Part shown: one piece after another, positions 3,883 to 34,745 of the stretch | Numbering within the stretch: position 1 is the first letter of the stretch | How the letters are laid out: each line of letters starts with the position of its first letter | Assembly (NCBI GenBank): GCA_026025075.1 | Contig: JAPEUI010000152.1 | Coordinates: 1-34,923 of the forward strand | DNA length: 34,923 nucleotides | Source of the DNA: Vezdaea acicularis | Taxonomy: Eukaryota | Direction: 5' to 3' | Notes under the pieces: model-generated | What the model saw: the letters and a program-made list of their open reading frames with translations, nothing else | Told to the model about the DNA's origin: nothing | Database searches by the model: none | Made by a program: the position numbers and the translations under genes

Positions 3883-5106
3883 CTAGCTTAACAATTTCAG
3901 CCCGCCAAACCCCATACCTTTCATCTCCTCCTGCACATACTCTACCACGCGCCTAAAAGTTTCCTTCCCTCCATCACAAGCACCACTCTCAAGATGCTGT
4001 GCTAGCCCACTCACAGTCGAGAATTGCCTAACAGCCTTCCCTTTGCTCCCCTCGCCCATCAAGGCACGTGGGCAATGGAATGATATCTCATTGGGTACTG
4101 GTAAGCACAAGGACACAGATGCTTGAGCGTGGATGCGTGACGACAGATGTTGCTGAAGTGCGCTATGCTTGAATGTACGAGTACAGGACGGAGGGCAAAG
4201 GGGACATGTTTGATAGCCACTCTGAGTGCGAGGCCGGAGGGTAAGCGCAGAGTGGAAGTTCGTGCTAGTTGAAAGAGTAGATGTAGGTGTAAGGATCGCG
4301 GAGGGTGGATAAGAGTCGAGGAATTCAGTCGAGGTTGGAGTAAGTATTGGACTCCAAATCTGCGATGTCGAAGTTGCAGACGGGTTGTCCTGTAGCAGCC
4401 ACAGTGCCATGACTCCTCCTGATGTTATAATCTGTTCTATATCATTTGCTGCAATAGCTGCATTCAGTTTCGTCTTCGTCGTCCCTGAGACACATCTCCC
4501 AGCCTCCAAATGTTGCAACTGTGCCGACGGGCAATTAAACTGCTTCTTACACTCCTCGTCTGCTATACACTTAATGTTGCTCAGCGGATTATGCCGTACT
4601 GACGTTAAATGCCGTCCTAGCGCATTATGATTCTTGAAAATCCTTTTGCATTTCTTGCACTTCGTTTGCTGATTGTCTTCCTCTTGTTGTTTTTGTTTCT
4701 TCGTCTTCTTGTTGCTCCCCTTCCCTAATCCGTGTACCTTGCTACAACGAAGATGATCTGCAAGTGCCCCTTGACTTTTGAAATCGCGCTCGCAGTCGCA
4801 GCACCGAAATTGTGTCGCGAAAGATGGTGTTATTGCTAGGACGGGGGCGTGCGATTGTATGTGAAGTGCGTGTAGCCGTCTCGTAGGAGAGAAGATGTCG
4901 CATTTGTAGCAGTAGGCATGCAGGCTCTCACGCTGGTGGGCTTCAAGGGATGGTTTGTGTGTGAAGCGCTGCCTGCATTCGGGACAAGAGTATCTGTCAA
5001 TGGACGGCAGGCGAGCTTCGAGCAGCACTTCAAAGCTGTCAGAGAGATCGCAGCGGGGGCAGGGACAGTGCTTGGTGGATTTTTGGTGTTGGATCAGAGA
5101 GGGCAT
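3883..5106 (-). CDS. Multi-C2H2 zinc-finger protein (407 aa, intronless ORF)
   Basis: Repeated CxxC..H..H units (CPECRQRFTHKPSLEAHQRESLH; CCDCERDFKSQGALADHLRCSKVH; CKKCKRIFKNHNALGRHLTSVRH) and two HLEAG/HLESG-C motifs seen in fungal C2H2 proteins. Confidence 0.88.
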   Translation of the reverse strand: MPSLIQHQKSTKHCPCPRCDLSDSFEVLLEARLPSIDRYSCPECRQRFTHKPSLEAHQRESLHAYCYKCDIFSPTRRLHALHIQSHAPVLAITPSFATQFRCCDCERDFKSQGALADHLRCSKVHGLGKGSNKKTKKQKQQEEDNQQTKCKKCKRIFKNHNALGRHLTSVRHNPLSNIKCIADEECKKQFNCPSAQLQHLEAGRCVSGTTKTKLNAAIAANDIEQIITSGGVMALWLLQDNPSATSTSQIWSPILTPTSTEFLDSYPPSAILTPTSTLSTSTNFHSALTLRPRTQSGYQTCPLCPPSCTRTFKHSALQQHLSSRIHAQASVSLCLPVPNEISFHCPRALMGEGSKGKAVRQFSTVSGLAQHLESGACDGGKETFRRVVEYVQEEMKGMGFGGLKLLS

Positions 5107-5422: not shown

Positions 5423-6735
5423 TAGTCAAGAAAGCTGTTAGTTACTATTACAGTTGTCGTCATCAACACAGTCGTTGTTTGAACAGTTGTTATTTTGCTC
5501 AAGCAGTTATCGTGAGGCATATGTTACATTTAGTAGTCTATATGTAACGCATACCTAAACCAATCTTTCATCATCCCTTCAGATCATAGCATCTATATCC
5601 TCATATGCTTGGACAATTGTTATCTAGTCAAAACTGACGATTGGTTGATCAAGCAACTTGCTTAATGAGCAGTTTTGTGGTGCCAGTAGCAAATTCTGTG
5701 GTGCAAATTCACACTTGAAAAGCTTGTTGGATCTCCTATCGAACGCCTCTCTGGGTCAGTATACTTTCTAGATAAGCTGCACCTGCTTTCACCTGATGAG
5801 CTGCAATTTTGTGGTATTCATCATGAAAGTTTAGTAATTTAATTGCCAGTCTAATGAAGTATTTTCGATTGGTGATTGGTGATCGTTCTTCTAAGTCGTT
5901 ACCATGATAGTGGTGATTGCGTACTGTCTCTATGATGTTATCGACATGAGATCTTCATGTCATTGGTCTTTTCTCTGATTTAGACTTCTTAGTTTCTATG
6001 CGATCTCTTTACTGGCCAAGAGGAGTGGGTCAGCGGTGATATCTGCAGCCGCCAGCTCTCCTGCATTCTCAATTCTAATTCTCCCAAACCGGTCTCCCAA
6101 GTTGTCCTCCTTGAGCGAGCTGGGGGTTTTTTTGGATGGGATGATTCATCCGCTGGTTCTTCATTTTAGTTGCTGTTGATCCAGTCATTAGAGCTTGATA
6201 GTCCTTTACAACCCCTAAAAACAGAGTGGTGATAGCGGACTGTCTTGCGTCTTTTCAATCCCGTCTCCTGCTAAGTTGGATCTATCCTTTGCGTAATAGC
6301 GTTCCAAGTGACGCTCGACTATCAACATAGAAGTAGGGAGTAATAGGTGTAATTCATCGCAACCACAATACGCAGACTTTGGCCAGATCCGCGTTAAGTT
6401 TAATGGTACGGGATGGAAAGCGTAATAAGCAGATAATGAGAAAATTGCATTAGGCGCAAAGATAAGTTGAGATTTGACGTCAACCTAAATGAAAGTTTCT
6501 GATGTGGGGAGGTCGGGCAAAAAATTGTACTATCAAAAACAAGAAGCGACAAAAATTTGAGGCTTCTGATCGTTCATCTCATCACCGCTTTCTTCACCAT
6601 CACTTACCTCACTTCTCTCTGCAGCTCTCGGTTAATGTTGGGAATAGTGGTGCTACTATTGGCGGATTCTTGATCTTCTTGAGATATTTGGTGCTCATTC
6701 AGCTCTTAGGTGCTCAAATTACGCATCTCAACAAG

Positions 6736-9224
6736 ATGCCTGACGGCGATGGGTCCAGGGCAATTCTTGCAAATTGTGATTCGGATTTCACGCCACTTCG
6801 AGACATGAATCACGAATGTCAATTCTCGAGTACGATGAGTTACTCAGAGCTAATTAGTTGGATCACCACTTCTTTCTCTTTAAAGGAGTTAGAGCATCAA
6901 GTTTCACGCATAACCGTTGATCAAATAAACGCATATGGAGAGAAAGAGTCGATTATCGTGGAAGATGATGAAGATTGGGCCAACGCGATTGATCCGCAAT
7001 TTTCAAAAACAGCTAGCTTAATCCGTGTTCAATTTCGTGTAGAGCCAGCTACTCAAGATATTGGCAGGCGACATTGTACACCTCTCGATGATGCTCTACA
7101 ACAGAGAGATTCAACCAGCAAAGTAACATTGCCTGGCTCATTTCCTTTGTTATCTCAGGCAGCGGGAGATCCACAAAAAGTGTTTCAAAGAAGAACAAAA
7201 GAGGAACAGACCCAAATGCTCCAATATGTGGTTTACTTAGCTGAAAGAAATCCAGGGATCACCAATCAAAGCAATTCTGGGGACAAGCGCGGGGAGACGG
7301 ATCTCACCTATCAAATGTGCATGAAGTTTCTCGATAACAAGAAGCTTCAGCGCTTGCGCGATCGCACTGCAGCTGTGGAAGCAATCACCCGTAGGCTCAA
7401 CTTATACGGCACTTCTAACATCAAGCAAACCATAGTCTACCGTCTTCCTCCACAGCGCCATCGCCCCAATGGAGAGGTGGTGTTCGGAAATGAACACAAA
7501 GCTCATCAGCAGACGTTTCTTGCTTGGGCGCTCTGGATGGAAGAGAGCATTCAGTGCGGAATTTGTGCAGACTATATGGGACTGGGCAAAACGCACGAAT
7601 GGCTTTCTCTCATCGTGGCTGGTACCGATTTCTGGGAGCAACGAGCTACAGGGGGTGCTACACTGGTGGTTGTGCCAAATAACCAAGGTAAAGAAGCCTA
7701 TGATATTGCTCAAAATCAACTTGGAGAAGGGTTCAACGTTATGCGATATGGTATAGGTGGAGGAGTAAGCCATTCGAGATGCGTCAAAAAGATCATGTTG
7801 ACGCCTAAAGATGAGCATTTTGCGGATCCGATCAAACGACGCCGACCTCCCGTCAAAGTGGTACTGAGCATTCTGGACGGAATGAAGAGCAAGGAGAGAG
7901 AAGCTACGCTCAACGGCCTGTCATAGCTACTAATCTATCAAAGAAGCAAGAACGTGATGCCTCAGGAACTGAAGGCTCAGTGCAGGAGTTGAATCATTCA
8001 GATTGTCCTCAACGATTGCAGGCTAGCAGACTATCCGACGTTCCGGAAACCATGATTTCATCTCTAGCCAATCCAATAGAAAATGAGCAAAAGGAAGTCA
8101 GTTCAGCATCTAATGCAATTCGCGTATCTAAAATCGTGGAAACCTGCCCTCGAGTTTTTAGCTCGGCGTTAACCATCAACCGAAAGCCACTTCCTCAAAC
8201 TACTCAGGTCATCACAAAACTGCCATTCTCAGTAGATTCTACTTCCGCCCGTGTCTTCATTGAGAAAGATGCTAAGAAAGAATTCAATGATTCTACAAAT
8301 ACCTCTGCATCATCTACAGCACCCATGCCGTCACAACACGACAATCACACACCGAGCGCAATTCCCAAGTTCAAGCTGAAGATACGGCCGGAGCAGACCA
8401 GATCCGCTCCCGCAGCCCCTGAGCTCTGGCCATGAAACTACAATGAAAACTATCCATGGATAGAAGCATCGTCCGAGCTTGACGTTCGGCTGTCTGAACC
8501 AAAGCCATTCCCGGTCAAAACTAGCCGTCCTCCATGATTCAAGCTCAAAATCAAGCGACCTTTGGCTTTGACGCAGAGTACTGATTTAATTGGCCAAGAA
8601 AAGACTCCCCCCAAGCGTGGCACTCATCTATCATCTTCCTCGCGGGCACCGAGTTCTGTCTCGCCTTCGCAGGCAGAGGATGTTTTTATTTCCCCAACCA
8701 AAGTTGCTGCACAGTCAAAGTTCCTAGAGAGTCTACGGCAGAGGTTGGGCCTCTCCAATAGTCCACGAGAGTTCCAGGAGAGCCTTGTACAGAAGAATTG
8801 GGGCAGCAGCGAGCCGGCGCTCCAGACCATTAGGGCCATGATGCGGAGCGATCTAGCTGAGCTGCCTGTTCGTACCTCGACGGGCCAGCCACCCAGTTTC
8901 TTTTCAGATGAGAGTTCCCAGGTTGAGCCACGGTTAAGTTTCCGGAAGCGACTTTCGCAGTTCAGGCCTCGCCTGCCACCTGCTCGCGCGCGGAAGTCCT
9001 GGATTCCGATGGAAGATATCCGCCCGGTCAGGGAAGAAAATGTGGCTAGCCTTGCCACAAGGCCAACTACTTCTGAAACGGAGCCCAAACGTTTACCTCG
9101 AAAGGAGAGGACAGAATTCCAACATCCTTCCACCGGCTTTCTAGCGAAATTGCGAAGGTGGTTGGCAAAGGGCAAGGAGAAGATTCGAGGATGGAAAGCG
9201 AGTATGAGTCGGAGGGGGGCCTAG
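6736..9224 (+). pseudogene. Disrupted long gene with a truncated SNF2-like ATPase N-terminal fragment and a low-complexity Pro/Ser/Arg tail
   Basis: GICADYMGLGKT resembles SNF2 motif I and ATLVVVP resembles motif Ia; no DExH or later motifs. ORFs 7980-8435 and 8562-9224 share one frame, broken by TGA at 8433 and 8535, and that frame stays open back across the 7926 stop (apparent frameshift). Start at 6736 is a guess. Confidence 0.6.
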
Positions 9225-9772: not shown

Positions 9773-10450
9773 ATGTCGTCTGTCCATCCCAACGTCTCGA
9801 CCTCTAATATTGTCCCTATCCTACAGCGCACTTTATCCAAGCTCCCTTCGCTCTCGCCCACCAACAGCTGCTGATGCAAACGCATCTCCAAGAAGAGAGC
9901 GCGACGGGCGCAGCATCTACGTGCCATCTCCGAGACCCATTTGCTCTATCACCAAAACCACCACTTCTGGGAGTCCACGAGGAGCCTAGGCTATTTCGAA
10001 AGCAGCTATAACGCTCACCCCGCCCACAACAGCACCGGGCAGCTCTACGGCCTCTCCAACGACTCGGGAATGGGCACGGAGAGAAATCCCTCCTGCGAGG
10101 CGCACGGGGCTGCCAGTTCCGACGATGACTCGGAGGACGGAATCCAAGTGGCTGAGACGCTGCCAAGGTCTGTCTCGGGAGCCAGTGACGGGAAGCGGGA
10201 GGCTGGGTGCAAAGAAGTGGACGCCAAGGGGAAGAAGAGCGTGTATGACCATGCGCGTGAGGTCAAGGGCTTTGCCCAGCGGCAGTTGGGTAAGTGCGAC
10301 TCTTGCCTGGAAAAGTGGTGGCAGAGGAAGGACAAGGTCAAGGAGAGGGAAGAGGTGGCCGAAGAGAGGGAAGGCAAGAAGAAGTGGGGCGTGTTTGGAA
10401 AGAAGCGGCAGAGTATCGTGCCCGCGGAGACGAGAGCGGTTATTGATTAA
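9773..10450 (+). pseudogene. Small hypothetical protein gene with one in-frame TGA at 9872
   Basis: ATG at 9773 is in frame with ORF 9941-10450 and has coding-like composition; a single TGA interrupts a basic stretch (SC*CKRISKKRARR). Confidence 0.5.
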
Positions 10451-10585
10451 TAAGGGGAAAGGTAGATCTCCACGTACAAACGGGCAATACAGTCGTCCAG
10501 CATTTCGTTTTTATCTCGGTCAGCGAGATGGGTTAAGAGCAAATGTGAAAATGGTAACAAAGAGTATTGGTACAGCCTTATTTTC

Positions 10586-11445
10586 CTACTTCTTCCCGCT
10601 CACCCATCCCTCCACGCCTCCCCTTGCGCCTTCAACGCCCTGCTCAATCTTCTTCTTGCCCAGCTCCGCGTGAACCTTGCCGAACCGCCATGCCTCTTGC
10701 AAGAAGCCTCGGGTATACAAATGCGCATTCCTGACGGCTGGCACCTTTTCCTCATAAGTCCAGACTAGATCTCCAACATTGCGACTGGTGATTGGGAGCA
10801 CTATCCACCCGACGGTGATCCCAGCGGCGAGGGGCACGGAGAAGCGAAGGAGGATGTTGCGATTCCGTGTGAGGATGCTGCCAGCCATTGCTGACACTAG
10901 GACGTAGATTGACCCCGGTAAGACTTTCTCGGAAGAGCCCTTGGACGGTGCAAGAGATGCGATGGTGCTTGTGAAGGAGTTTTCGAGGTGAAACCCTTGC
11001 GTGAGAAGATTGTTGAGCTTGTCCTCGCCTGTAGAGACGGCTCTCTGAAGAGACAGTCGGGCCGCCCGAACATGTTTTTCTAGGCGGTCTGTCGGAGTCG
11101 GGTTTGAGACGGATTGAGAGGAGCTTGGATGGGCGGCTTTGGAGGTCGGCTTTGGATCTGCTTTCACGGCTGAATCGGCGGCGGCTTTCAGAGCGGCTTT
11201 CGAAGCGGCCGAGGGAAGCATTCCCACGTCATCATATATCGGCTTCTTCAAGTACTTTGGAGAGGAATCAGGTGCCTCGGCGTATGCGGTTCTGGAGGAA
11301 AAGAGAGCAATGCCGGCGGCCAGTGCAGTGGCTGCGACTGGGACCACTGAGCGCTGCACATGTGTTAGCCCTTCGCTGTGGATAGTCGCCGGCTGTTCAT
11401 CAGGAGGCGACGGTGGTGTCAAGGAAAGATCTTACCTGCCGCAGC
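10586..11445 (-). CDS. MIC26: MICOS subunit Mic26/Mic27 (apolipoprotein O family), apparently lacking its start codon region
   Basis: Motifs KKPIYDD, TPTDRL..VRAARL, LENSFTSTIASLAP, LPGSIYVLVSAMAGSILTRNRNILLR and NVGDLVWTYE. Intron from a GTAAGA donor at 11435 to GCTAAC..TGCAG near 11354. The upstream exon frame (..ALRQ) meets a TGA within six codons with no ATG. Confidence 0.85.
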
Positions 11446-14189: not shown

Positions 14190-16000
14190 AATGGGGCTGG
14201 CTGCCTCTCCTCCTCCTTGACTCCACCATTTCATTCTCATCTCGTCCTTTGCACATTGTAGCTTCCTGTTCCGTTTGGTGGTGCTGCTTTGGCATAAGTA
14301 ATAATCCTTCCAGTCCCCTTCGCAGCACCCGCCTTCTCAAATCATCCTGGTCATTGCGCATATCCTCTTGGAGAGCTCCCCCTAAAGCTGAGGTGTGTCT
14401 AAACAAAATGTCCAGCAATCCTAATTGTGGCACCTGTTGGAGGGCACTGCCCACATGATCCATTGCCTCCCTATGAAGGGTAAAGCGACCGTGTAACTTA
14501 GCTAGATAACTTCCATCACATCAGTCAAATTCGGTGTGATCATCACTCCCGCTCCATTCCAACAGCACCCAAGATGAAGGTTTTGGGGTTCGACGTATAT
14601 GTCGCAGTGAGAATGAATGAGTTGCTATCTACGTTGAGACGGGGGGAAGGGGAAGCTTATAAGATTCCCCTGAGTACGGGCCAATCCTACATGGGTATGG
14701 CAGGGGTGAACCACTCGAAACACTCCCTACTAATACAAGAATATACCCTAGTGCCACCTCGTCGACACACTCTCGCTGACAGCAAAGGAAAATGGGCATA
14801 TCGCTTTGGGTGGATATGATTGAAAGTCAGAATTGTTAAGGGTGAATGTATAGAGGATATAAGGATTTGGGGGGGATCTCAAGGGACAGTGTTGGTAGGG
14901 AGTGCCTCACGTGGGTTCACCCCTGCCTTACCCATGTAGGATTAGCGCGTACTCTCAGGGGAAGCTTATAAGCTTCCCCTTCCCCCCGTCACAACGTAGA
15001 TAGCAATTCATACATTCTCACAGCGGCATATTGGTCGAACCCCAAAACCTTTTATATTGTGATAAGCATGAGTCATCAGACCAGAACCGTGTCGAAGGAT
15101 GCCGTTAGAAGTCGCTCAAGAGTAGGAAGAGAGGGCGCTATATAGACTACCAAACCCCCTCAGCCAGAAGAGTAAGCAATTCACAAAATTCTTATACCCT
15201 TCTAGTACCTGTGTGTTTTTTCCACGCTAAACTGTCGTGATGGCAAGAGGAAGAGTGCGCTTGTCCGGCGACTGGACACCCAAAAACAAACTGACGAAAC
15301 ATGGAAGCAACGCCTTTGTGATCAACAAGCCGAGTCAAATTTACTAAATGCTCATGACTGGTTCTGCAGCTTCGCACAAATTTAAATAGATCCTGCATCT
15401 TCGTGCCATATCTAGAGCCCAGCAATCGAAGCGAATACGCTTGGACGCGGCTGACAAACAAGACAAATGGTTTTGTCTCGGGCATCTATCACAACGCTCT
15501 TAAGCTTTGTGGCTCACGTTTGATGTCCATTGGGCTGACTTGCCATTCTTTCCCCAAAGCAAAGTCAGATCCCTCTGTCCCTGAGCTGGCAGCTTTCCCA
15601 GGCCGCCCAAAGTTTGGTGCTCCAAACAATGGCCTCTTTTTCTCTGTGTCAACTTTAGACCAAGTAAGTAAGATAGAGACATGTGTAAGCAAAAACAATC
15701 GACGCTGTATAGGTATGATGATACATCACAAAGACGATTCTGTTGAAGTACTTGCCAGTGGTCGCTCAAAAAGAGTGTGATATCGACCATTTATTCAGAG
15801 CATGACGGTTCGTTTACGGCGTTACGCTACCAAATGTCTGGGAACGGATCTAAAGCCTTCGTCCGTCAAATCTTAGTGTGCACTGATAATAGCGATAAAG
15901 CATTATTTGTGCCTTACAGAGAGCTCAGGTTAATCAAAACAAGAGTAAGTTCTGGAAGAGACATCTTGAAACCTTTTGTGCGCTTACTCATTGTCAAATG
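14190..16000 (+). pseudogene. Relic of a fungal hypothetical-protein gene with stops and frameshifts, interrupted by the MITE
   Basis: Coding-like fragments on both sides of the MITE. CVSKNNRRCIGMMIHHKDDSVEVL is followed by an out-of-frame QW (cttgccagtgg), and ORFs 15403-15780 and 15777-16220 abut in different frames. Boundaries are approximate. Confidence 0.4.
14577..15051. mobile_element. MITE-like non-autonomous element (~475 bp) with ~160 bp imperfect terminal inverted repeats
   Basis: Left arm aaggttttggggttcgac...caggggtgaacc...cactccctactaatac (~14577-14738) is the reverse complement of gtgttggtagggagtg...ggttcacccctg...gtcgaaccccaaaacctt (~14889-15051). No transposase; target-site duplication not clear. 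Confidence 0.88.
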
Positions 16001-16307: not shown

Positions 16308-19300
16308 CTAGATGGCATGAGTTTTGGGCATTGATAACAGATATTCAAACAAATCCCCCGAATCTAGTAATCGTGGTTCCCTTTTACGTTGGAGACTGGC
16401 GAGGTGTTCTAACTTAGAAATCGTACTCTCGTCAACTTGCATGGATGTTCCATAATTTAGCAAACTAAGGATCGGGTTATCGACAAGGCATTTCAGTTTG
16501 GGGCGTAAATTCTCAACCATCTCCACAAAGAAGTTGAGCTGATCATTGTCTTGAGAGATCTTATTATACCTAGAAACAGTTAACGGTGGGGAAAATTGTT
16601 TACGTTTAGATATCAGCTCACATTTCGGGATGCACCGTGAAATTACAATCAAAGGGACTTGAAACCTTTCGGGTAGGAATCAGCGCAGCCACTGGTAGGT
16701 CACAGCATCCTTGTAACCTTTGAAGAGCGTTGCCTTCGTTTACTATACTCTTTATTTTTCGTCTCATCTTGTCTGATTCCGCATCCTTCTCCAGTTCTTC
16801 AATCGGCTTCTCATAGCTCTCGGCAATAAGTTGATCATATACGTAGGCGCCAGCGCTTTTACCTGGATAAATGACTCCAGTTGCTTGACCACTCCTGCCC
16901 TCTCTAAGTCTCTTAAGCTTCTTGTCCTTTAATTTCTGCTGTTGAATTTGCTTCAACTCAGAGAACCGCTTGCTCAGGTAATGAGCAGCCACGCGTTTTT
17001 GAATCTGATAGCAAGCCATGCCGACTCGGGCACCAACATGCAGGGCAAGAGCTCTTGCTGAACAATTAAGTGGTGTTTTGAATTGGGTGACGCCTTGAGA
17101 TTTTAGCATAGTGACTACGTCGACAAGTGTCTGGGGACCGCCAAAAGCAGACACCAGCATGAGAATGGTATATATTGTGCCTGATTGCATCTTCCCGGAT
17201 TTAGACTGCTTGTTGTACGCTTCCAACCACTTTAAGCCAGCGACTTGTAAGATTCCCGTATGTGTAGCATTTGTTGGGCGACATGCAGTAGGGATGTCAT
17301 CAAAATCGGTAAGCTTACGCACCTTTGTCAAGTTCTCTACACCAACACCACCGGAAGCCAGGTCCCTTTTTCGTTTAGCGGAGATAATACGAACTTTGTC
17401 TGTTACATGCTGAATGAGCATTTTGAGATAGTGCAGTCGGAGCTCAACGGGACTTTTGCTCAAGATGTTGCTATTATGTTTTAACAATGCTTCAGCGTGA
17501 GCAATCACATAAATAGCACAGTTAACGCCGTCTTGATGTCCAGGGAAAAGCTGCGATCGTTCTTTAGACCAGTTGATAGATGTTGATAAACTCTTATTTA
17601 CTGATTTTCCGATAAAGTCAGCCACCTCAAAAGATCTGGTTGATTGATCGATGAGATCAATCTTAGCCGAGAGAATGTTGATGACAATAAGATACCAATG
17701 GCAGCCGCCAATAAAGTATGGTGCAATCACCACGGTTGCCTCTGCTGGAATCACAAGCTCGGATATATCGTGACTTTCGAAAGCTTTAGAAAGACTCAAA
17801 GGATCTATGACGAACTTTGTTTCGTGGTCCACACACATGAGTCGAAGGAGAAAGTATACTACACGATCACTCAACCAATTGTCTGGCGGCGAAAGATCAG
17901 GGTCAAATCTGCGAAGTTCAGAGGAGCAGTTTTCTAAACTTTCCATGGATGTGGGCCACATGAAATGCTCATGATGTTCTGAAGCAAATTCGATGCACTG
18001 CTTGATTTCATCACATGCTGAAGCGTTAGAGCCAGGGTTTCTGTCCTTTTTTTGGTCCTCTTTTTCGATTTCTCTTTCGCTGTTGCTATTGACCAGGCTT
18101 CCATTTTCACTTGTGTTTTTGCTCCAGCTCTCACTCTGGTTGTTGCCATTGCTCGGGCTTTCATTGCTGCTGCTGCTCTTGCTCTTACTCTTGCTGTAGC
18201 TAATAGCCAGGCTTGGACTTTTGCTCCGACTCCTGCTCCTGCTCGCAATTTCATCCTCGTCCTCGTCCTCGCCCTTGCCCTCGTGCGTGCTATCGCTCTG
18301 AATTTCGCTATTGCTGTTAACTGGGCTTCCATTTCTACTGCTGCTACCGCTCCTGCTGCTCCTGCTGCTGCTCTTGCTGCTGCTCCTGCTCTTACTGTAG
18401 CTAGTGGCTAGGCTTGGACTTTTGTTCCGACTCTTGCTCCTGCTCGCAATTTCGTCCTCGTCCTCGTCCTCGTCCTCGCCCTCGTCCTCGCCCTCGCCCT
18501 CGTGCGCGCTATCGCTCTGACTTCCGCTTCTGCTCTTGATCCTCATCTCGCTCTCAAGATTTACACCTTTGGGGTTTGAATACTTCTTTCGAATAGGATA
18601 TCTAGTAGTAGTTGATGATGGCCGTGTGGTCCTCCGTGGTTTAGATTGTGTTGTAGGCTTGTCGTCATTCTCCAAATCCACTACATCAAGTGGACGACTA
18701 AAGTTTATCTTCATTCCTCGTGAAGTCATAAACTTGCGTCCACTACCACAACCGGCGCGACTAGAACAATCCCTATGGGTTGGAGGACAGAACCATTTTG
18801 GATTGATACAACAGTTACACGCCTCCGCAATGTTTTTACCAAAGTTAAGACCACAATGATATGCGCCGTACAGGATAAGCATTAAGGTTTTAGGCTCCTG
18901 GAGAGCCACGGAGAAATCAATCTCCCATTCACGCAAAAGGGAGGGACGTATGATTATGGGATAATGGCGCACAAATTGACTGCAGGCCGCTGGAATATTT
19001 AGATGGTGTTTTAGTCGAGACTCCAGCTTCTCTTTATGATGTGGATAAACAATTAGCCAGAGCTTTGGACAGCCCTCAATGACGACATTTATTGAATCTA
19101 AGCCAAAATCCTCCGAGTGTAAAGGGAATACTGTTTCATCGTCGCTGGAAACATAAGCATAAGACGAGTGAATGCCGAGATAGTGTTGCTGAGTGCTGAG
19201 GAGACGATCGTCAGGTTGAAGAATAGAAACAGCAGAAAGGCCTAAATCGCTGCGTTGTTCCTCAATGTGAGCGCTAGCAATATAATATCGTGAAGGCTTG

Positions 19301-19872
19301 TTCGATGATGACTTAGCTATTGCATCGATTTCTTGCTCCATGATTCTTTCAAGATCAGATGTGTCATATGTCCTTGTATCTGGAGGAAATTCGGGCATAT
19401 AAAAACACTCATTGTTACCCAGCTCTATAGTCGACTCCTTAAGCTCAAGTATACCATTCTGATGACGGAGTTTCTGCTCTTGTACTTCACCTCGACGGAT
19501 TTCACCAAGGGTGTGAGACAAAGGTGGTAGATTTGGAAGCTTCACGACAAGGAAGCCTGCTATTGATTTATGTCGATTGACCTTCTCCAAGCCTCGTAAC
19601 TGTTGTACAAGATTTGAGGTGTCTTGTAAAAAAAGTGTTTCACATTCTTCGCGGGATCCAACAGTTAGAGCTGGAGATTGAGAGCTTGCAGCGCTTCCAA
19701 GGCCGGTATCCAAGCGCTGCCTTATTGACTGAGCTGCTTCTGGATGGTTCTTGAGATATTGTAGGAGGGGGCCTAATATCTGAATTGAGGCTTAGTAAAA
19801 GTCTTGCTGTGCTCAAGGTATCGTACTTACACTATCTAGTGTGGCGTTCTGTGATCTGGTGGACCTTGCCAT
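16308..19872 (-). CDS. JmjC (KDM4/Rph1-like) demethylase domain + Ser/Arg/acidic linker + Ulp1-like (C48) protease domain + helical C-terminus, about 1,150 aa
   Basis: Exons 19872-19831, 19779-16622 and 16569-16308 with in-frame introns 19830-19780 and 16621-16570. JmjC: FPLHSEDFGLDSIN (HxE), PKLWLIV, CSQFVRH, GAYHCGLNFGKNIAEACN. C48: WLSDRVV, GCHWYLIVIN, IDLID, HQDGVNCAIYV (H, D, Q, C). Confidence 0.88.
18160..18540 (-). repeat. Internal duplication and low-complexity linker within the JmjC-Ulp1 gene
   Basis: QSDSAHEGEGEDEGEDEDEDEDEIASRSKSRNKSPSLATSYSKS and QSDSTHEGKGEDEDEDEIASRSRSRSKSPSLAISYSKS, built from ctcgtc and ctgctc micro-repeats. Confidence 0.85.
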
Positions 19873-19930
19873 GATTCGTTCGCGTTGCGTCGTGGGCGTC
19901 GTGTACGTTGTGTGCGAATCTATGGTTGGG

Positions 19931-20000
19931 GTGTTATATCACGTGAGTCGCGGCTCCGTACATCGGATTGTACGGAGCCGCGACTCACGTGATATAACAC
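19931..20000. repeat. Perfect hairpin, 32 bp stem and 6 nt loop
   Basis: gtgttatatcacgtgagtcgcggctccgtaca - tcggat - tgtacggagccgcgactcacgtgatataacac, about 60 bp upstream of the JmjC-Ulp1 ATG; each arm contains CACGTG. Confidence 0.97.
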
Positions 20001-22255
20001 TCTAAGTGTGACCAACCACCATACAGTGCGTGGCATACGAGAAGCACTACATAGAGGCGTCACCTTTGAATGCGGCACCATGCTGTCACTGAATCGTTGC
20101 AAATTCAATCAATGCTATTGTGGGCTTACATTGGGGAGAATTTATGTAATACTATGTTTTGGATTTAGATGCATTGTCGGTAGAACTTTGTCATCTCAAC
20201 CCTTTTGCTCAGGGGCCTGCCTGGGTAGGTAGGTGCTGCTCTAATAAACTGCCCTCTCAAAGAATCGAGCGTCCTAATAGCTAATTGGCACAGACAAATA
20301 TCTTTCCTGTATAGACGAGAATTGACATCTCACATCTGTCGCTCTCGCTGTTGTGGGTAGCCCCTCAACTGCCAATGCAAGTCGGTGTCAATCCAACGGA
20401 AATCCGACTTATCAGGCTCACCCCCAGAAATTGCCTCGTCCCTAGTGTCCGTTTCTTTGCAATGGAAAGGTCGCTCTGTCGTGATATCTGTGACCGTCCG
20501 GTGTACTTACGACTGATCTCGCTGGCAAGTTACATCGGGCCAGTCATTTGTACACGTACAGCGAGGTTGTTTGCGGCAGTCAAAAATTCGAGAGAAGCCA
20601 TCACATTGGATTGCCTAAGCTGCAAGTATTGTACTGATCAGCGATTTGTCGAATACAACCAGTGGCTCGTCAAGTTTGCAGGGAAGAGTGACCGAGTGAT
20701 CCTGTCTCCGCTGGGTGTCAGACAGGAGACTGAAGGCATCCCAAGCTGTCCTCCATGCAACATCGCGATTTGGCTTTTCCTCGGTATACCTCGCTGTCTC
20801 AGCCACGATCACTCTTTCCTCCTTTGTTATGGTACTCGTGCTATCGCCTGTGACCGGTCCCTACATGCCTTGCAAAGCAGACAGAGTCCTCTTTATTCCA
20901 TTCACGTAACAGTCTTTCATTTTAAGATGTCATAGATCGGCGTTGATGACCTTGCGCTAACATTGGACAGGATTCCGAGCTTTTGGAGTAGTTCTCTTTA
21001 GGTCAGCTTTCCACTGGCGTAATGTTATCTGTTGGGCCTACGCGGCCATCAATGAAGAAATAGCCTGCCCCCTTTTGACACTTAGCTTGGAGTTACCTCG
21101 GCGCACTTTCGACAAGTATGAGGCTAGAGCTATATCCTCGTATGGTAGGCACTTAATCGATATACCATTGCCAAAAGCTCGATCGTCGCAATTAACCTAT
21201 ATGGGAAACGCCATTAGGTGCCCCTTCTCTGGCCGCACAGATTCTTGCTACTAACGCTGGAAGTAGCTCTACGGTCGGAGGGAAAGAAATTCTCACACTC
21301 TAAATCGCCATGTCCATTAGACAGTTGCGATCTTTCTTCTGGGTATTCCAAATCAAGGTCTTGCCATTATGGATTTGCTGTTTAGATCTGTTTCAAAGTT
21401 GACGACGGCTTGACCAGTCAGTCCACCCTGCTTGGGAAATGAGACGTGACGAGTCGGCGTATTCCTTATTTAGATCTCTCATGATGTTGATAATCTTAGG
21501 GGATCTTTAAGAATGGCTCACTGGCTGTGTCTGTGTCATCTCAAAAACATGTGGCAATGAATGTTATCCTCTGCTAGTTGGCTGGATAGACCAAAGTTAA
21601 CGTAGATCGTGTCAAAGATCACTTACTTGGTCCACTTTGACTGCCATGAGCTTACAACCGGTACATAATTATTAGTAGCGTGAATAGAGTCTGGCCTCAA
21701 GTCGTCTGTTGTGAGGGCCAACCTGCTGCGACGGCCCAACCTGCTGTGAGGAGTGTACTGTACAGTACAGTGAGTAAGTGCTGCTTGAATAGGAATATTC
21801 TGTAGAAAGGCGACCAAACAAAGTCCGGCGATAAGTGAAGTGAAGATCAATGGGGTGAATATGAGTGAGGTGAAGTGAAGGTGGGAGTAATACGTACATA
21901 AAGTTTAGCAAGAGTGGTTTCTTGGGAGACGGATTGTTTCTCACTTGATTGCATCTGCGCCTCTTGTATCAATATCGCCCCTGATCTGCGCCCCAACAGG
22001 GATAGACGACGGCGCATGAACATACCAAACCAAAAACACTGGTTGTTTTGGATTCAGACATCGAGTCCTGGCTTGGAGAGTTCCCGTTGAACTCCAGTCC
22101 TTAGATTCTTACAATTAGGCCCAATCTATCCCTCCAACAAGAGGATCTGCTCATCGGGAGCTTACGCAGTCGATGAACGCCCATATAAGTCAATGCCGAT
22201 CGAATCCGATCAACGTCCTCAACGCTGCCGCCGACATCAGTACCCGCAAGATTGT

Positions 22256-22820
22256 TCATCCGTGCATTACGAAGACGTTAACTGTTTGTGCTGCTGGTAT
22301 CCTTCGGTTGCTACAACTTGAAGAGGGAGATGCGCAATTGCCAAAGACAGAGTTTGGGCCAAAGCATTTCTTTTCCAACTCTTTCATAAGGAGGTACTTT
22401 TCTTCAAACCTTTCCACCAGTTTTCTCCGCACCTCATCCTTCAACCTAATTGAACGTTCCTTGTCTTCCCCAAGGAGCACAATTACAGTTTCAATCACTT
22501 CGCGCTTGTCATATCTTGCATCTCCTGTTGTTGCATCACCAATAGACCACACGTTGGATAGTTTCACCGCTGCGGGAAAAGCATGGGCTGGTCGACCATA
22601 TGCGCTGGCACTTCGTCCGCTTGGCGACTTCAGATAGGCCACCATTCTCCGATGACAATCCGCCAGCTCGCTCCGTTTCTCGCTCTCTTTGTTGTCAAGT
22701 TCTTCGTGATCCTCCTGAATGCCCAGTGAACCAAGGGAAAACCAAGCGCCGTCGTTGTTCAGACATCTCAGTAGAGCCGTGCGCAACCTCCGGCCTGGTG
22801 ATACGAATTCCTCCTCTTGA
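22256..22820 (-). pseudogene. Truncated, frameshifted paralog of the C-terminal part of the 23429-25870 dioxygenase
   Basis: RGGIRITRPEVAHGS..RRLVFPWFTG, one extra G, then IQEDHEELDNKESE..KSPSGRSASAYGRP..AAVKL..WSIGDA. This matches RGGIRITRPDIAHGS..RRTIFPWFTGIRDDHQTLDNEESE..KSPSGRSADAYGRP in the intact gene. Confidence 0.9.
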
Positions 22821-23351: not shown

Positions 23352-23415
23352 GCAGCATCCCTGCACTGCAGCATCCCTGCACTGCAGCATCCCTGCACTG
23401 CAGCATCCCTGCACT
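23352..23415. repeat. Four perfect tandem copies of the 16-mer gcagcatccctgcact
   Basis: Directly visible; ends 13 bp before the ATG at 23429. Confidence 0.96.
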
Positions 23416-23428
23416 AATTGTCGGTCCA

Positions 23429-25870
23429 ATGGCGCACGTTATTTTTCCGAGCCACACGGCCACAGGCAAAGCTCCTTTCGACAGCGGAAGCCCGAGTGAT
23501 GAGCCGCAAGAACTATCTGAGAGCCAGCTGCAAGGGCTACCTCTGAGCAAGCAGCTCCAGCTACTGGTTGAACGCATCAAAACCGCCGCAGAAAAGCAAG
23601 AACCTTTGGTCGAGTCGGCAATCGAAGCCTGGGATTACATTATCAACCACCAGACATGGAGAGCAAACTACCCGACATTGGAAGCTCTGAAGGACGAGCT
23701 GAACCGCAGCGCAGGCCTCGATTGCATAATCAAGACACATGAGTCGATCGTGTCTCGCAAGCAACTTGAAATTACAGGAATCGAGAAAGAATGGAAGTGT
23801 TCTCCAGACCAGGCGTTGCCGTCACATATGAAACCTGAACAGTATTCACATATATTACTCAGAGGTTTGAATCAGCTCAGCAGAGTTCTTCCCAAGGAGG
23901 AAGCTATACGCCAGTTGACCATCGCAATCACAACCCGTCAAAGCAAAATCCGAACTAGAAAATCTCCTTTTTTATCATATCCAGACATCAAAGCAGTGTT
24001 GGACCAAATTCAGTCAAAGAAAAATGCTTGCGAAGTTGCCAAGGCCAACGATACGAATCTTGGGGATGTGGCAGGCTCGGAGGTCGTTGCCGAAGAGGAC
24101 ACTTCCATGACTGGGTCAGATTTGGAGACGATCACGGGTGCATCCACTCACAATGAGGAAGAGAAAGGTGGTGACAACGAGGAAGATGATGACAGAGATG
24201 AAGAAAATGAAGGCGACAATGACGATGATGATGACGATAATGTTGACAATGACAAAGATGAAGACATGATGGAAGCTGGAGAGGACCAAGAAGACCAAGA
24301 CATGACGGAAGCTGGAGATAGCCTCATTAGCAATGATAAGGGGCAGAATCAGAATATTCAGCCCTGTTTGGCAAAACTCATGTCCAAGAGGAAGAAGATA
24401 TCATGTCGCTGCCCAAAGGCGTTGATCAAAGAGATGGAATGCACTCGTGCTGGCAGGCTAGAGGACAAGCCAAGTAGCGGGATTAAGCTGCTCAAAAATG
24501 GCAGGAAGTATGGCCTCGGGAAGCTGTGCCACAATCATCTGAGAGTATTGGCCGGCAAGGCCATGATGCTGAAGACAAGTCGTCCGTCGACGGCCCTCAT
24601 TGAGCGACTGGAAACCTTGTGGCAGAACCACGGACAGCTGGACCAACAGAGAGTAGATAATGCGGAATGGTTCACAGGGATGCCGCCTGCCAAAATGTAC
24701 AAATTCATCCCTCTTCCAGCTCCAGCTTTCGATTTCAACTCTGCTATCATATTCGACTGCTTTGCAGGAGACGGCATGTGGTCAAGGTGGATCGACCAGG
24801 GGACTATCAACATTCCAAAGTTCTTTAGTTATCTGGTGGATTCTCCGACAATCTTCTCCAAGGTTGAGCAAGAGTTTGACATGTACCAGCATCACTACTC
24901 TGCACCGGAGAACACAAGGGGCTGGCTGAGGATTATGTACTACTCCTTGACCCAGCAAGTCATTCGACAGGATCCAGCGTACTACGCCGTCACCGTTGCC
25001 AGCCGACCGGACAAGAATTGGCGTCTGATCAGTTACCCGTACTACACCAAGGACACCACAAACCTAGGTAAGAGCACCGAGTTTCGCCACTTTGACATGA
25101 ATGTTCGCAAGTTCTTGAGCACTGGCAAGGGAGGGAACATTATCCAGGGCTGTGTGGCCCTGGATGATGAGACAGACAATGACTGCACTATGCTGATTCC
25201 TGAATTCCACAAGCATATTGCTGAATGGTGGGGAGAAGTGACGAGGAGAAAACAAGCTATCGGAGAACAGCTCCCAAATGGGGAAACCACGAACATTCCA
25301 TCAGAAATGTACACCCCAGAAGACAAGAAGAGGTTTGGTGCGTTTGTTCCCTGCCCCAGTCAGCGAGGTGGGATCCGCATTACCAGGCCGGACATTGCAC
25401 ATGGCTCCAGCAAGAAGGCTGGGCAGCGGCGGCGGACAATTTTTCCTTGGTTCACTGGCATTCGGGACGATCACCAAACGCTTGACAACGAAGAGAGCGA
25501 GACCTGGGACCAGCTGGCTGCTTATCACAGGGCTCTGTTAGCCTGTTACAAGTCACCGAGTGGGAGAAGTGCCGATGCTTACGGCCGGCCAGATGCGCCC
25601 TTTGCCGCGGGAGTGAAGCTATTCAGCACATGGGCCATCGGTGATGCATTGATTGGAGCAAGAAGATGGGATGATCCTATGGTTGTGCGAGACCGAAATC
25701 GGCTCTTGGGACCGGACTCCGAATCCAGAATTGCTTTGGTACAAGAGGTGCGGCAAAGGCTGCTGGACAACTTTTTAGAGGCGTTTCTCATTCTGGAAGA
25801 GGCTGAAAAGACTTCCTTTGGCTCAGACTCCTTCTTCCTGAAGCATGCCTCTGTAGTTTCGTGCTCCTGA
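23429..25870 (+). CDS. 813 aa intronless protein: helical N-terminus, acidic tract, Cys/His cluster and C-terminal PhyH-like 2OG-Fe(II) dioxygenase domain
   Basis: FRHFDMN (HxD), IQGCVALDDETDNDCTMLIPEFHK (PhyH-type strand), RGGIRITRPDIAHGS (distal His) and RRTIFPW (2OG-binding Arg); SCRCP...LCHNHLR upstream. Confidence 0.8.
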   Translation: MAHVIFPSHTATGKAPFDSGSPSDEPQELSESQLQGLPLSKQLQLLVERIKTAAEKQEPLVESAIEAWDYIINHQTWRANYPTLEALKDELNRSAGLDCIIKTHESIVSRKQLEITGIEKEWKCSPDQALPSHMKPEQYSHILLRGLNQLSRVLPKEEAIRQLTIAITTRQSKIRTRKSPFLSYPDIKAVLDQIQSKKNACEVAKANDTNLGDVAGSEVVAEEDTSMTGSDLETITGASTHNEEEKGGDNEEDDDRDEENEGDNDDDDDDNVDNDKDEDMMEAGEDQEDQDMTEAGDSLISNDKGQNQNIQPCLAKLMSKRKKISCRCPKALIKEMECTRAGRLEDKPSSGIKLLKNGRKYGLGKLCHNHLRVLAGKAMMLKTSRPSTALIERLETLWQNHGQLDQQRVDNAEWFTGMPPAKMYKFIPLPAPAFDFNSAIIFDCFAGDGMWSRWIDQGTINIPKFFSYLVDSPTIFSKVEQEFDMYQHHYSAPENTRGWLRIMYYSLTQQVIRQDPAYYAVTVASRPDKNWRLISYPYYTKDTTNLGKSTEFRHFDMNVRKFLSTGKGGNIIQGCVALDDETDNDCTMLIPEFHKHIAEWWGEVTRRKQAIGEQLPNGETTNIPSEMYTPEDKKRFGAFVPCPSQRGGIRITRPDIAHGSSKKAGQRRRTIFPWFTGIRDDHQTLDNEESETWDQLAAYHRALLACYKSPSGRSADAYGRPDAPFAAGVKLFSTWAIGDALIGARRWDDPMVVRDRNRLLGPDSESRIALVQEVRQRLLDNFLEAFLILEEAEKTSFGSDSFFLKHASVVSCS

Positions 25871-27960: not shown

Positions 27961-29321
27961 TTACACAGTACTACCTCTTGCCCTAACAGGCAGTTTATTA
28001 ACCTTATCATCAGTTATGCGACCTTGCTCAGTATCTGAGGGTGAATCTGCTGGCAGAGATGTGTCATCACTTTGACTATCAATTTCAGAAGTCGTTGAAC
28101 TTGGCGCAGTTTGGGCCTGGTGAGCAGCGCTAGATCCACTTGGTTGAGCACAAATGGAGAAGCTAAATGAACTTTAGTGCAGCACGCCTGACATGAGATA
28201 TGAATCCTACTTACACTCGCCAGAATCCATGTATCCTTGTATCTTTTATCTCTCTTCTTACGTGGCCAAGAAGAACCTCTACCTCATATCTGGACCATTT
28301 TAACCCTTCGATGAACGGCGCCAACGTGAAGCCTGAAAGTCCTTCTAGCAGATTGTGCAGGGCCATAGCTCCAATTATCTTCTCCTCATGATCTTTAGGC
28401 CAAGAATTGATTGGCCACTTGCGTTCTTCCCTTTTGATACTAGTAAATCCAGTCTCTGTGAGTGTCTCGATTAAGCCCTGCATCGAATAAAGGGGACGAG
28501 CTTTTTTTTGATATGCTTCCTTTCTGAGATCCGACCATTTCTTTAAATATGAGTCTTCTGGGATTGATGAATCATCACATTCAAGTTGAAGACTAACGTC
28601 CTGTATTTCTAACCATCCATCCGAATTGAGATGTTCTCTACACCATTGTAAGACTCCCAACCAATTTCGAAGGCTTCCAACAAGACCGCGAGTATGAATA
28701 TAATCCCATTTTGTCAAGGGATGCCATTGGCACGTCTCAACATCGTCGACAACAAAAAAGACACCTGAAGGGACCCTGAATTGTTTGATTAGTTGTAAGG
28801 AGTATCGATTCGGACGTGATTTTTCTACTAACAAAGTTGGTTGAATTGCGCTGAGATCAATTCCTGTTACTATCATACCTGGATTCATCTCCGCTATAAT
28901 TTTCATGTTAAACTTGAAATTTTACGTGCAATGGCCTTTGGATTTTTACCAAAATCCATCACCCATATTCCAGTCCCAGTCCCAGTACCAATATCAAGAA
29001 CATTCTGTGCTCCTGATTTAATGGGAGCCTGATATAATTTCCGCCGAATGTATTCAGAAATAGCTGATGTTGCCAATCAAGACGATCTTGCTCCGCCTGC
29101 AATGCATGGTGAGTGAGAATTTTCAACATCAAGTTCTCGTTATGTCTTGCCTCGTCATTAGGTAAAAGATAGCCCTTACTATACGCTTGATAGGTGCGCC
29201 CATACTTCTCAATACCCTCTCTTACTGATGAACTCACGGAAGTGGAACCTTGACTTTCTAGATCTACATTTATTCCTTCGTCTTCGTCGACAACATCTGG
29301 ATTTGGCTGAGTGGTAGCCAT
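27961..29321 (-). pseudogene. LaeA-like (Methyltransf_23-type) SAM-dependent methyltransferase with a 1 nt frameshift
   Basis: STSVSSSV..KYGRTYQAY..YLLPNDE|AEQDRLDWQH, VLDIGTGTGIW, GIDLSAIQP, VDDVE, WDYIHTR, DGWLEIQD and KWPINSWPKD. Four introns, the first GC-AG (29150-29097). ggaaattatat near 29035 lacks one A, so KLYQAP..VLDIGTGTG is out of frame. Confidence 0.88.
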
Positions 29322-33233: not shown

Positions 33234-34745
33234 CACCCTTGACATGCGGTTTTTCGTAAGCGAGTGCCTTTACGAATAGGTGGATGGTAGCCCTTCGACC
33301 GCCTATTCGTAAAGGCATGAGCCGTTAGCGAGCTATTAGCTACCGGCTTGCCTGCGCTTCAAGCGCTCGAAGCCTGGGGCAGCCGGCTTCACCCTGGGGT
33401 CGCTGGGGCGCTCCCGCAAGCACTTGAAGCGCTCAAAGCCCCGGGCAGCCGGCTTCGCTCCGGGCTCGCTGGGGCGCTACTTCAAGCGCTTAAAGCGCTC
33501 CAAGCCTAGGGCGGCCGGCTTTGCCCTGGGCTTGCTAGGGCGCTTCCGCGAGCGTTTGAAGCGCTTGAAGCGCTCAAATCGCCAGGCAGCTGGTTTTGCT
33601 CCAGGCTTGCTGGGGGTTCTGCTTTAAGCATTTAAAGCGCTTAAAGTCCAGAGCGGCCGGCTCTGCTCTGGGCTTACTAGAGCTCTATTTTAAGCACTTG
33701 AAGCGCTTAAGCCTGGGGCGGCTTGGCTCTGCTTTGGACTAGCTGGAGCGTTCCTACAAGCATTTTAAGTGCTTTAAATGCCTAAAATTTAATACATTCA
33801 TTTTTGTAATATGTTTATTAAATCAAAAATTTTAAATCTTTACGCAATTGCGGTTTTGCTTATACTTAATATTTTAATTGCTTCAACTATTCTAAAAATA
33901 TTAAATTAATTATGATACAATATGTATCAATATGAACTGCATAAAGTTTTAGGTGTCGCGGATAAAATAAATGAACGCATCTATTAAATCTAATTGATTC
34001 ATGTTTTAATTATTTTTTAAATATCAAATTGCAAGGAATTTTTCAAAAATGTTAGTATTAGTTATTTTCAAATATAAATTGTTTTATTGCTCCAAAAAAA
34101 TTCTTGATAAAATCGTACCAATGTTTTTCTATTAATTATTTTCATCAATATCTAACAAGATTTTAACTATTTTTATCAATTATTTTTACTTTTAATATTA
34201 GATTAATTAATTTAGGAATTAATAATATTAAAATACTAAAATATTCTATTCAATAATTAAAAATATTTTTTTAGCAGTGCAAAAGCTCAAAATCGGCAAT
34301 TTGAGCGTGAATAGCATTGCGCTTTAAGCGTTTCAAACGCTTGAAGCGCTCATAGGAGCGCTCTAGCAAACTCAATGAGAAGCCGGCTGCCTGGAGCTTG
34401 AAGCGCTTAAAGCACTTCAAGCACTCTTGAAAGCGCCCCAGCGAGCCCAGGGCACAGCCGACTGCTTTGGGCTTCAAGCGCTTGAAGCAGCGCTTGCTGC
34501 AGCACCCCAGCAAGCCCGGAGCAAAGCCGGCCGCCCCAGGCTTGGAGCGCTTCAAGCGCTTGTGGGAGCGCCCCAGCGAGCCCGGAGCGAAGCCAGCTGC
34601 CCCAGGCTTCAAGCGCTTGAAGCGCAGGCAGCTGGTAGCTAATAGCTCGCTAATGGTTCATGCCTTTACGAATAGGCGGTCGAAGGGCTACCATCCACCT
34701 ATTTCGTAAAGGCATTCGCTTACGAAAAACCGCATGCTAAGGGTG
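33234..34745. mobile_element. 1.5 kb foldback-type non-autonomous DNA element: ~500 bp inverted arms with subterminal tandem repeats around an AT-rich core
   Basis: Ends cacccttgacatgcggtttttcgtaagcga / tcgcttacgaaaaaccgcatgctaagggtg. Arms carry ~60 bp repeats (aagcgcttgaagcgctc..cccggggcagccggcttcgctccgggctcgctggggcgct). Core ~33790-34270 is extremely AT-rich. No ORF of recognisable function and no clear target-site duplication. Confidence 0.92.

Follow-up and report, generated by a model that had tools for sequence, protein, structure and literature searches.

A retrotransposon-associated family of predicted PhyH-like dioxygenases in ascomycetes, represented by an apparently intact gene of Vezdaea acicularis

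A 34,923-nucleotide stretch of Vezdaea acicularis DNA (GenBank assembly GCA_026025075.1, contig JAPEUI010000152.1, positions 1 to 34,923; hereafter the window) encodes at positions 23429..25870 of its forward strand an 813-residue protein, P0001, which a first-pass annotation made from the letters alone had described as a large intronless PhyH-like dioxygenase with nuclear-protein features. We propose, with the balance tipping modestly in its favor, that P0001 is an intact cellular member of an undescribed two-domain ascomycete family whose substrate is tied to genome conflict. The tie to conflict is drawn because distant paralogs of the same architecture form a third open reading frame (ORF3) of Ty3/Gypsy retrotransposons, where they are under strong purifying selection. 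That the family is carried by long terminal repeat (LTR) retrotransposons was directly observed, and we hold it with near certainty.

The P0001 frame runs uninterrupted from ATG to stop codon (the stop is included in the coordinates), and no intron is required, as P0001 aligns end to end with its homologs and P0003 spans 96% of the query; the large intronless gene of the first-pass annotation is therefore borne out. An N-terminal all-helical domain, delimited by profile matches and a structural model and apparently specific to the family (residues 25-212, 23501..24064, + strand as for all features of the gene), precedes a variable acidic linker recognized by its D/E composition (windows with at least 40% D/E span residues 228-306, 24110..24346; residues 216-300 are 46% D/E). 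A basic KRKK patch resembling a nuclear localization signal (NLS; residues 320-323, 24386..24397) leads into a basic helical segment (24404..24733) that contains a CxC pair (CRC, 326-328; cysteines 326 and 328) and a CxxH motif (CHNH, 367-370). The catalytic core, a predicted double-stranded beta-helix of PhyH/DUF1479-like type, covers residues 436-750 (24734..25678; model residues 107-421 when compared with PDB folds) and includes H554-x-D556 (H-F-D, 25088..25096), the proposed Fe(II) ligands, as well as the stretch from H658 to R668 (25400..25432), in which H658, within AHGS (657-660), is the proposed third iron ligand and R668, within RRRT (667-670), the arginine proposed to bind the C5 carboxylate of 2-oxoglutarate (2OG). 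A long C-terminal helix with an invariant E793, seen in both the alignment and the model (residues 751-813, 25679..25867), completes the protein. The motif set HxD..H..R in the C-terminal half and the preceding helical region, D/E tract, KRKK and CRC...CHNH cluster had all been read correctly from the sequence, and the extra modules stand, with the length of the region before the beta-helix revised from ~400 to about 435 residues.

An AlphaFold model of residues 330-813, built from 29 sequences, showed a PhyH-type double-stranded beta-helix (predicted local distance difference test score, pLDDT, 90.1; predicted template modelling score, pTM, 0.79). In the model H554 and D556 share a strand (223-226), H658 is part of a second (329-331) and R668 flanks the next one (340-342), a placement suggesting the canonical Fe(II)/2OG-binding arrangement, with H554, D556 and H658 predicted to cluster in space. 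The best match in the VIA structural search was Candida albicans GIG2 (DUF1479, 6akz; Z 21.0, 282 aligned residues, root mean square deviation 3.6) and the second was Yersinia YbiU (4rgk; Z 19.8). Classical PhyH-type enzymes were also matched well, with AusE (15.8), ColD, EasH, EvdO1 and AsqJ at Z 15.3-15.8, PAHX (2a1x) at 14.6 and PHYHD1 at 13.4. Foldseek returned 237 PDB matches for the catalytic model at E<=0.001, with DUF1479 proteins and enzymes of PhyH type ranked first (top matches 7twe, 4rgk, EvdO1 and PrhA; probability 1.00). In a viral structure library the matches were limited to generic PhyH-like proteins from phages and giant viruses.

The PhyH-like assignment of the first-pass annotation is thus upheld by fold (Z 13-21), and weakly by sequence, where the Pfam PhyH profile (PF05721) matched P0001 with E 0.0023. 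That alignment covered only residues 562-669 and the C-terminal half of the profile, ending at position 211 of 213. Across the family, 24 of 30 members matched PF05721 at E<=0.05 (best 1.6e-10) and none of the 30 matched the DUF1479 profile (PF07350) at the same threshold; a sequence comparison of P0001 with the PDB gave only PHYHD1, at E 0.91. The same annotation had judged the motifs unlike those of AlkB and of TET/JBP. For AlkB this agrees with the structural search, in which ALKBH6, NMAD-1 and JMJD3 (each Z 8.8) and JMJD5 (8.6) scored far lower than the PhyH/DUF1479 chains; for TET/JBP, no such chain was among the 50 entries listed, and absence from such a list excludes no family. The catalytic core, as modelled, falls among the PhyH-like Fe(II)/2OG dioxygenases by its fold and, weakly, by its sequence, and P0001 is very probably an active enzyme of this class.

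Profile searches recovered 2547 representative clusters (50% identity) at E<=0.001, 1589 at 1e-10 and 594 at 1e-30, and a word-indexed search gave 31 relatives of 27-55% identity, the named ones all from Pezizomycotina and many from lichen-formers. The named representatives of the family are all ascomycetes. The closest named homolog is P0002 (797 residues, 55% identity), whose source label of 'gamma-tubulin' looks misannotated. Among 193 aligned catalytic domains H554 was retained in 182, D556 in 188, H658 in 184 and R668 in 186. Seven further polar residues are near-invariant and specific to the family (H489, R513, D515, R526, K541, E581 and R650), and from this conservation they are candidate substrate contacts. 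No fused form longer than 1423 residues was found in the family, which is weak evidence.

The genomic context of homologs, which the first-pass annotation had suggested examining for copy number and association with repeats, proved the informative line of evidence. Metagenome contigs were scanned, and of 259 confirmed stretches that encode relatives the best 80 were analysed as loci (L-numbers). In two of these, L015 and L017, a P0001 homolog of 986 or 988 residues is ORF3 of a Ty3/Gypsy element in which it follows, on one strand, ORF1 encoding gag and aspartyl protease (1059 residues) and ORF2 encoding reverse transcriptase, RNase H and integrase (1214 residues); LTR identity in the two elements is 99.6% (over 279 nt) and 100% (over 127 nt, where the contig ends). 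In L045, L052 and L077, which make up a second Gypsy lineage with pol 36-50% identical to that of the first, the ORF3s have 1097-1240 residues. The L077 contig closes on itself through a 127-nt identical overlap, and the order of gag-pol followed by ORF3 is thereby restored. Overall, gag or pol lies directly upstream on the same strand at 30 of the 80 loci, and at one more (L077) if the contig is allowed to wrap; 12 other loci show no pol in 6 kb or more of upstream sequence, and the remaining 37 are too short for a decision.

The retrotransposon ORF3s share the whole architecture of P0001. The H, D, H and R residues are intact in all five, a further R is retained as well, the basic CxC...CxxH segment is also kept, and the N-domain profile matches their N-termini with E values from 6.9e-17 to 1.7e-5. 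Between L015 and L017 the ratio of nonsynonymous to synonymous substitution rates (dN/dS) was 0.083 for ORF3 (0.099 for the N-terminal and 0.073 for the C-terminal part), 0.086 for pol and 0.197 for gag. As ORF3 is constrained on a par with pol, the element appears to need the ORF3 protein. The number of captures was addressed with catalytic-domain trees, which are unrooted and fit uptake of a cellular gene by elements as well as descent of cellular copies from elements, and for which the outcome of the approximately unbiased (AU) test depends on the comparison set. An exclusive clade of the five known ORF3 rows was rejected against all 62 other rows (p 7.5e-9), an unfair comparison given that the context of most of these is unknown; when the comparison was restricted to four rows whose context is known to be free of transposons, a single ORF3 clade was not rejected (p 0.53).

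A set of 28 loci, 24 of them from one metagenome, holds stop-riddled copies of the family (GC 0.36-0.41). These degraded copies belong to a 10.66-kb repeat with sharp ends and 80-90% nucleotide identity (L053 matched 27 of 27 others), bounded by direct terminal repeats of 260-266 nt that are 93-94% identical. Pure transitions account for 3388 of 3594 variable alignment columns, and relative to an intact relative C-to-T changes affect 53-56% of CpA and 45-46% of CpG sites and only 12-15% of CpC/CpT sites, a bias that points to hypermutation resembling repeat-induced point mutation (RIP). The L015 proteins could be aligned end to end with the degraded copies, at 67-72% identity, rising to 84-88% against a transition-corrected consensus; one of the two element lineages has at least 28 such RIP-like copies. 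The gag and pol of the degraded element could be identified because they are matched by these intact relatives. Among 47 stop-free fragments Pfam gave one significant match, to a MULE transposase piece in L070, and two stray sub-threshold ones; the MULE fragment (L070:10039-10644, E 8.2e-12) lies just past the degraded LTR copy and is a neighboring insertion, not part of the element.

The surroundings of P0001 itself differ from those of the ORF3 copies. No match to gag or pol was found in the 35-kb window at E<=1e-3, and no LTR-like direct repeats were found flanking P0001 there. In the catalytic-domain trees P0001 pairs with P0002 (support 97-98) within a clade separate from both ORF3 clades (Shimodaira-Hasegawa-like approximate likelihood ratio test, SH-aLRT, 100). 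Four loci of this clade (L003, L007, L008 and L009) have at least 6 kb upstream without pol, and the loci of the clade share neighbors with related contigs at 52-84% identity and show dN/dS of 0.07-0.27. Because of the pol-free upstream regions, the common neighbors and this constraint, the loci of the P0001 clade behave as stable cellular genes. By its sequence P0001 looks intact, and we consider the window copy probably cellular and functional.

Immediately upstream of P0001, a truncated and frameshifted paralog fragment (22310..22817, - strand) corresponds to residues 646-813 (BLASTP 70/145 identical, E 6e-38; two tblastn pieces in different frames). The fragment is 46-72% identical to P0001, lies head-to-head with it at a distance of 0.6 kb and coincides with inverted repeat I5; apparently a local inverted duplication left it behind as a pseudogene. 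About four units of a 16-nt tandem repeat, GCAGCATCCCTGCACT, lie shortly before the ATG (23352..23415).

The modules preceding the core were conserved to different degrees. The N-domain profile (residues 25-212) recovered 17 ORFs among the loci, retrotransposon ORF3s included, and the domain was modelled as all-helical (pLDDT 90.2, pTM 0.73). Foldseek gave no match for it at E<=0.001, its best VIA match (Z 7.2) was to generic helical repeats and covered residues 1-86 only, half of the domain, and the best score against the ESM Atlas was 0.76. As modelled, the N-domain is family-specific and without a convincing structural relative. The CxC...CxxH motif, with a spacing of 27-57 residues, was present in 120 of 157 sequences having at least 110 residues upstream of the core, and in the family alignment C367 is invariant and H370 is retained in 90% or more. 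Between CxC and the core the sequence is basic (median isoelectric point, pI, 9.55, above 8.5 in 98 of 120; median net charge +7), ORF3s included, with a pI of 9.7 in P0001, where residues 349-434 are helical in the model. This combination of conserved Cys/His residues and positive charge suggests a candidate zinc- and nucleic-acid-binding module. An acidic tract of at least 40% D/E occurs in 47 of 110 sequences and is recurrent, not universal. The catalytic residues, the CxC...CxxH motif and the helical N-domain thus recur beyond chance, and of the extra modules named earlier KRKK and the acidic tract are not family-wide.

At some loci the N-domain and the catalytic part are encoded in separate adjacent or overlapping frames (L001:1395-2327 and 2158-4239; L004:1256-2155 and 2022-3863; L007:7812-9764 and 9824-11428). 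Some of the ~520-residue 'short-form' members may therefore reflect an intron, a frameshift or gene-calling, not loss of the N-domain.

Taken together, we hypothesize an enzyme in which a helical N-domain and a linker of variable, frequently acidic sequence precede a basic CxC...CxxH segment, a core of PhyH/DUF1479 fold and a long C-terminal helix. H554, D556 and H658 would hold Fe(II) and R668 would bind the C5 carboxylate of 2OG; oxidative decarboxylation would then generate a ferryl species for hydroxylation or demethylation of a substrate held by H489, R513, D515, R526, K541, E581 and R650, and the basic zinc-like segment would serve as the targeting module. Substrates could include chromatin, a modified DNA or RNA base, or a host protein of silencing or defense, and the window copy may perform the same chemistry for the host as an ancestral cellular or a domesticated form. 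That the substrate is macromolecular, as the first-pass annotation had supposed, receives circumstantial support from the ORF3 paralogs and the basic CxC...CxxH segment, and we rate it as slightly short of an even call. A more specific version is that the protein is a counter-silencing enzyme of ascomycete Gypsy elements, which would remove or rewrite a defense mark (5-methylcytosine or another modified base of DNA or RNA, or else methylation of a chromatin protein that acts before RIP-like hypermutation), the cellular copies being domesticated or ancestral and used in host chromatin or defense regulation; in this detailed form we regard it as unlikely.

A number of observations weigh against the proposed account of P0001 as a whole. 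Identity between P0001 and the retrotransposon copies is just 29-34%, and the latter fall in other clades; their role need not apply to P0001. P0001 departs from the family at two of 35 columns conserved at 90% or more (G592E and C644S; the family median is one). Its PF05721 score of 18.7 bits is below the curated gathering cut-off of 22 bits, and P0001 is for this reason a superfamily relative and not a PF05721 member; the family profile likewise gave nothing significant against PDB sequences, the best rows being low-complexity. The catalytic core is near neutral (median pI 6.56, with pI above 8 in only 45 of 193), and the nearest solved folds belong to small-molecule enzymes or to proteins without known function. 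The CxC pair (326, 328) falls outside the modelled segment 330-813. A KRKK-like patch (at least five K/R within the 20 residues before CxC) is found in only 35 of 120 sequences, and the NLS reading is weak because this patch is lineage-variable, which weakens its earlier use as a nuclear feature. Finally, an ORF matching Methyltransf_23 (28211..28906, - strand, E 2.9e-11) lies 2.3 kb downstream of P0001. Methyltransf_23 is common in fungal secondary metabolism and its regulators; no other biosynthetic genes were seen near this ORF.

Several of these points would be explained if P0001 were an ordinary PhyH/DUF1479-type small-molecule oxygenase, with extra domains that are regulatory or oligomeric and with retrotransposon capture as incidental cargo. 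The well-matched solved relatives of known function all act on small molecules (AusE, EasH, AsqJ, PAHX, EctD and KanJ), and both the near-neutral core and the methyltransferase ORF are in keeping with such an enzyme. Incidental cargo, however, is hard to reconcile with an ORF3 that is constrained like pol (0.083) in two deep element lineages, and the ~435 conserved extra residues with their basic CxC...CxxH are missing from metabolic enzymes of 220-320 residues. Nor do homologs sit in biosynthetic clusters, the setting that the first-pass annotation had named as contrary to its proposal: polyketide synthase, nonribosomal peptide synthetase, terpene cyclase, P450 and transporter families were found in none of 40 neighbor ORFs at E<=1e-4, and a rescan of the 19 unassigned ORFs at E<=0.05 likewise gave no biosynthetic-cluster family. 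We therefore consider a small-molecule role somewhat unlikely. The neutral core would also suit a protein hydroxylase, acting on gag, integrase or a host restriction protein in the case of the retrotransposon copies and on a chromatin or defense protein in the case of the cellular ones, with nucleic acid not being the substrate. The prolyl hydroxylases PHD2, P4H and OGFOD1 share the fold at a lower Z of 9-12, and the acidic tract and helical N-domain resemble protein-interaction modules. Yet no specific evidence favors such an activity, the closest folds are PhyH/DUF1479 and not prolyl hydroxylases, and the basic zinc-like segment suits nucleic acid at least equally, making this alternative improbable.

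A different possibility is that the window gene has no function at all, being a stranded ORF3 or duplication relic that is drifting toward a pseudogene. The truncated, frameshifted inverted paralog upstream, the MITE-like (miniature inverted-repeat transposable element) and foldback repeats in the window, the substitutions at two highly conserved columns and the absence of RNA data sets among the sequencing data listed, where three DNA data sets came from one study, could be read in this way. Against it, the 813-codon frame is open with all four catalytic residues intact, the number of deviations is typical for the family, gag, pol and LTRs are lacking within 35 kb, and P0001 groups with cellular copies that are conserved, syntenic and constrained; we consider a functionless relic very improbable. 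An intact cellular member of a conflict-associated family remains our preferred account of P0001.

The closest structural relatives differ from the P0001 family in organization. DUF1479 proteins (GIG2, 6akz; Yersinia YbiU/YPO2976, 4rgk and 7twe) have a ~300-residue core and a PhyH-type beta-helix, interrupted by helical insertions, in common with it, but they are 13-14% identical, are single-domain chains of 395-451 residues, and are without the helical N-domain, acidic linker and CxC...CxxH segment; DUF1479 was unnamed in titles and abstracts among the literature matches listed. PhyH small-molecule dioxygenases (PAHX 2a1x, PHYHD1 3obz, AusE/PrhA, EasH, AsqJ and EctD) share the fold (Z 13.4-15.8) and the HxD...H...R set, with the arginine ten residues past the distal histidine, but are single-domain proteins of 250-320 residues whose known substrates are metabolites. 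Several are encoded in biosynthetic clusters.

Dioxygenases on mobile elements also have precedents, among them AlkB in plant RNA viruses. The nearest to the ORF3 arrangement is found in orchid Ty3/Gypsy elements, where an additional ORF is reported to encode an active AlkB-type demethylase of N6-methyladenosine in RNA, proposed to act against host surveillance and described as a recent acquisition in one lineage (PMC9289625). Both systems place a 2OG dioxygenase in an extra Gypsy ORF; the orchid system involves plants and AlkB, in contrast to the fungi, PhyH/DUF1479 fold, two deep element lineages and many cellular paralogs seen here (PMC9289625). Fungal DNA transposons encode TET/JBP enzymes that, as a 2025 survey speculates, may counter cytosine methylation or C-to-T hypermutation; according to the survey, TET/JBP enzymes are encoded by no retrotransposon (PMC12730594). 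The likeness lies in an Fe/2OG dioxygenase on a fungal mobile element, and the degraded copies described above show such hypermutation at CpA/CpG; the carriers there are DNA transposons and not, as here, ascomycete LTR retrotransposons (PMC12730594). In the full-text literature searched, which leaves uncovered most subscription journals and Repbase-type catalogues where prior annotation is possible, neither the family nor any LTR retrotransposon of fungi with a PhyH-like ORF is described. The fold and the principle of a mobile-element-borne dioxygenase are already known; the family, its architecture and its carrier appear new.

Most neighbors of homologs are large ORFs without a known family. 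SNF2/Helicase_C genes lie 1-7 kb downstream of a homolog in four independent groups (L008/L010, L031/L044, L018/L019 and L042) and are the immediate neighbor in three of them. These SNF2 genes share only generic helicase motifs, and while the pairing may be functional it is a lead only. ORFs with an rva_4 integrase core were found near non-retrotransposon homologs (L028:5111-6214 and L042:6628-7674), one also with Clr5, which hints at other mobile or heterochromatin-linked neighbors. Very large ORFs of 1155-1279 residues, which form one family with 22-24% mutual identity and no Pfam match, recur near homologs in three locus groups (L023:392-4228, L029/L035:14944-18408 and L031:18811-19701).

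The window contains other genes besides P0001. At 3.7 kb from it, on the - strand (16618-19713), lies an intronless ORF of 1031 residues, given in the source annotation as a 1153-residue 'Lysine-specific demethylase 4B', in which a JmjC domain (E 1e-17) and, weakly and below threshold, the Ulp1/C48 protease were matched; it is a second large 2OG-oxygenase gene nearby, carries internal 165-nt repeats (18165-18548) and returned only itself in a word-indexed search. A gene of the NOD-like receptor (NLR) type (1-3211, - strand) combines SesA (2732-3211), NACHT/NPHP3_N (904-2478) and WD40 (3-911) regions, the WD40 repeats being encoded by 126-nt tandem units that are 95-97% mutually identical. An SNF2-related domain begins in the ORF at 6502-7926, after which several shorter ORFs in other frames follow up to 10673 (+ strand), as in an intron-rich or broken gene; this gene showed no close match to the SNF2 genes adjoining homologs elsewhere. 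The window also encodes a C2H2 protein. None of the 80 related loci contains a counterpart of the JmjC-Ulp1, SNF2, C2H2 or methyltransferase ORF. Repeats in the window include a MITE-like element of ~475 nt (14577-15051; terminal inverted repeats 92-93% complementary), a foldback-type element of ~1.5 kb (33234-34745; inverted arms 87-96% complementary, built from 66-nt tandem subrepeats) and a palindrome containing CACGTG (19926-20005; 37-nt arms, 95% complementary, 6-nt loop).

Dioxygenases of mobile elements are rare and informative, as they reveal which host marks matter for silencing. An ORF3 under strong selection, together with one element lineage that is hypermutated, offers a handle on the conflict between retrotransposons and genome defense in ascomycetes. 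What was an anonymous 'hypothetical protein' becomes an enzyme that can be tested, with its catalytic residues and domain limits defined, and the family may also offer an initial hint of what the DUF1479-like branch of the PhyH fold does. If the counter-silencing role were true, the family would be the first case of a PhyH/DUF1479-fold enzyme that targets nucleic acid or chromatin, and its carriers would be the first LTR retrotransposons in fungi armed with a dioxygenase.

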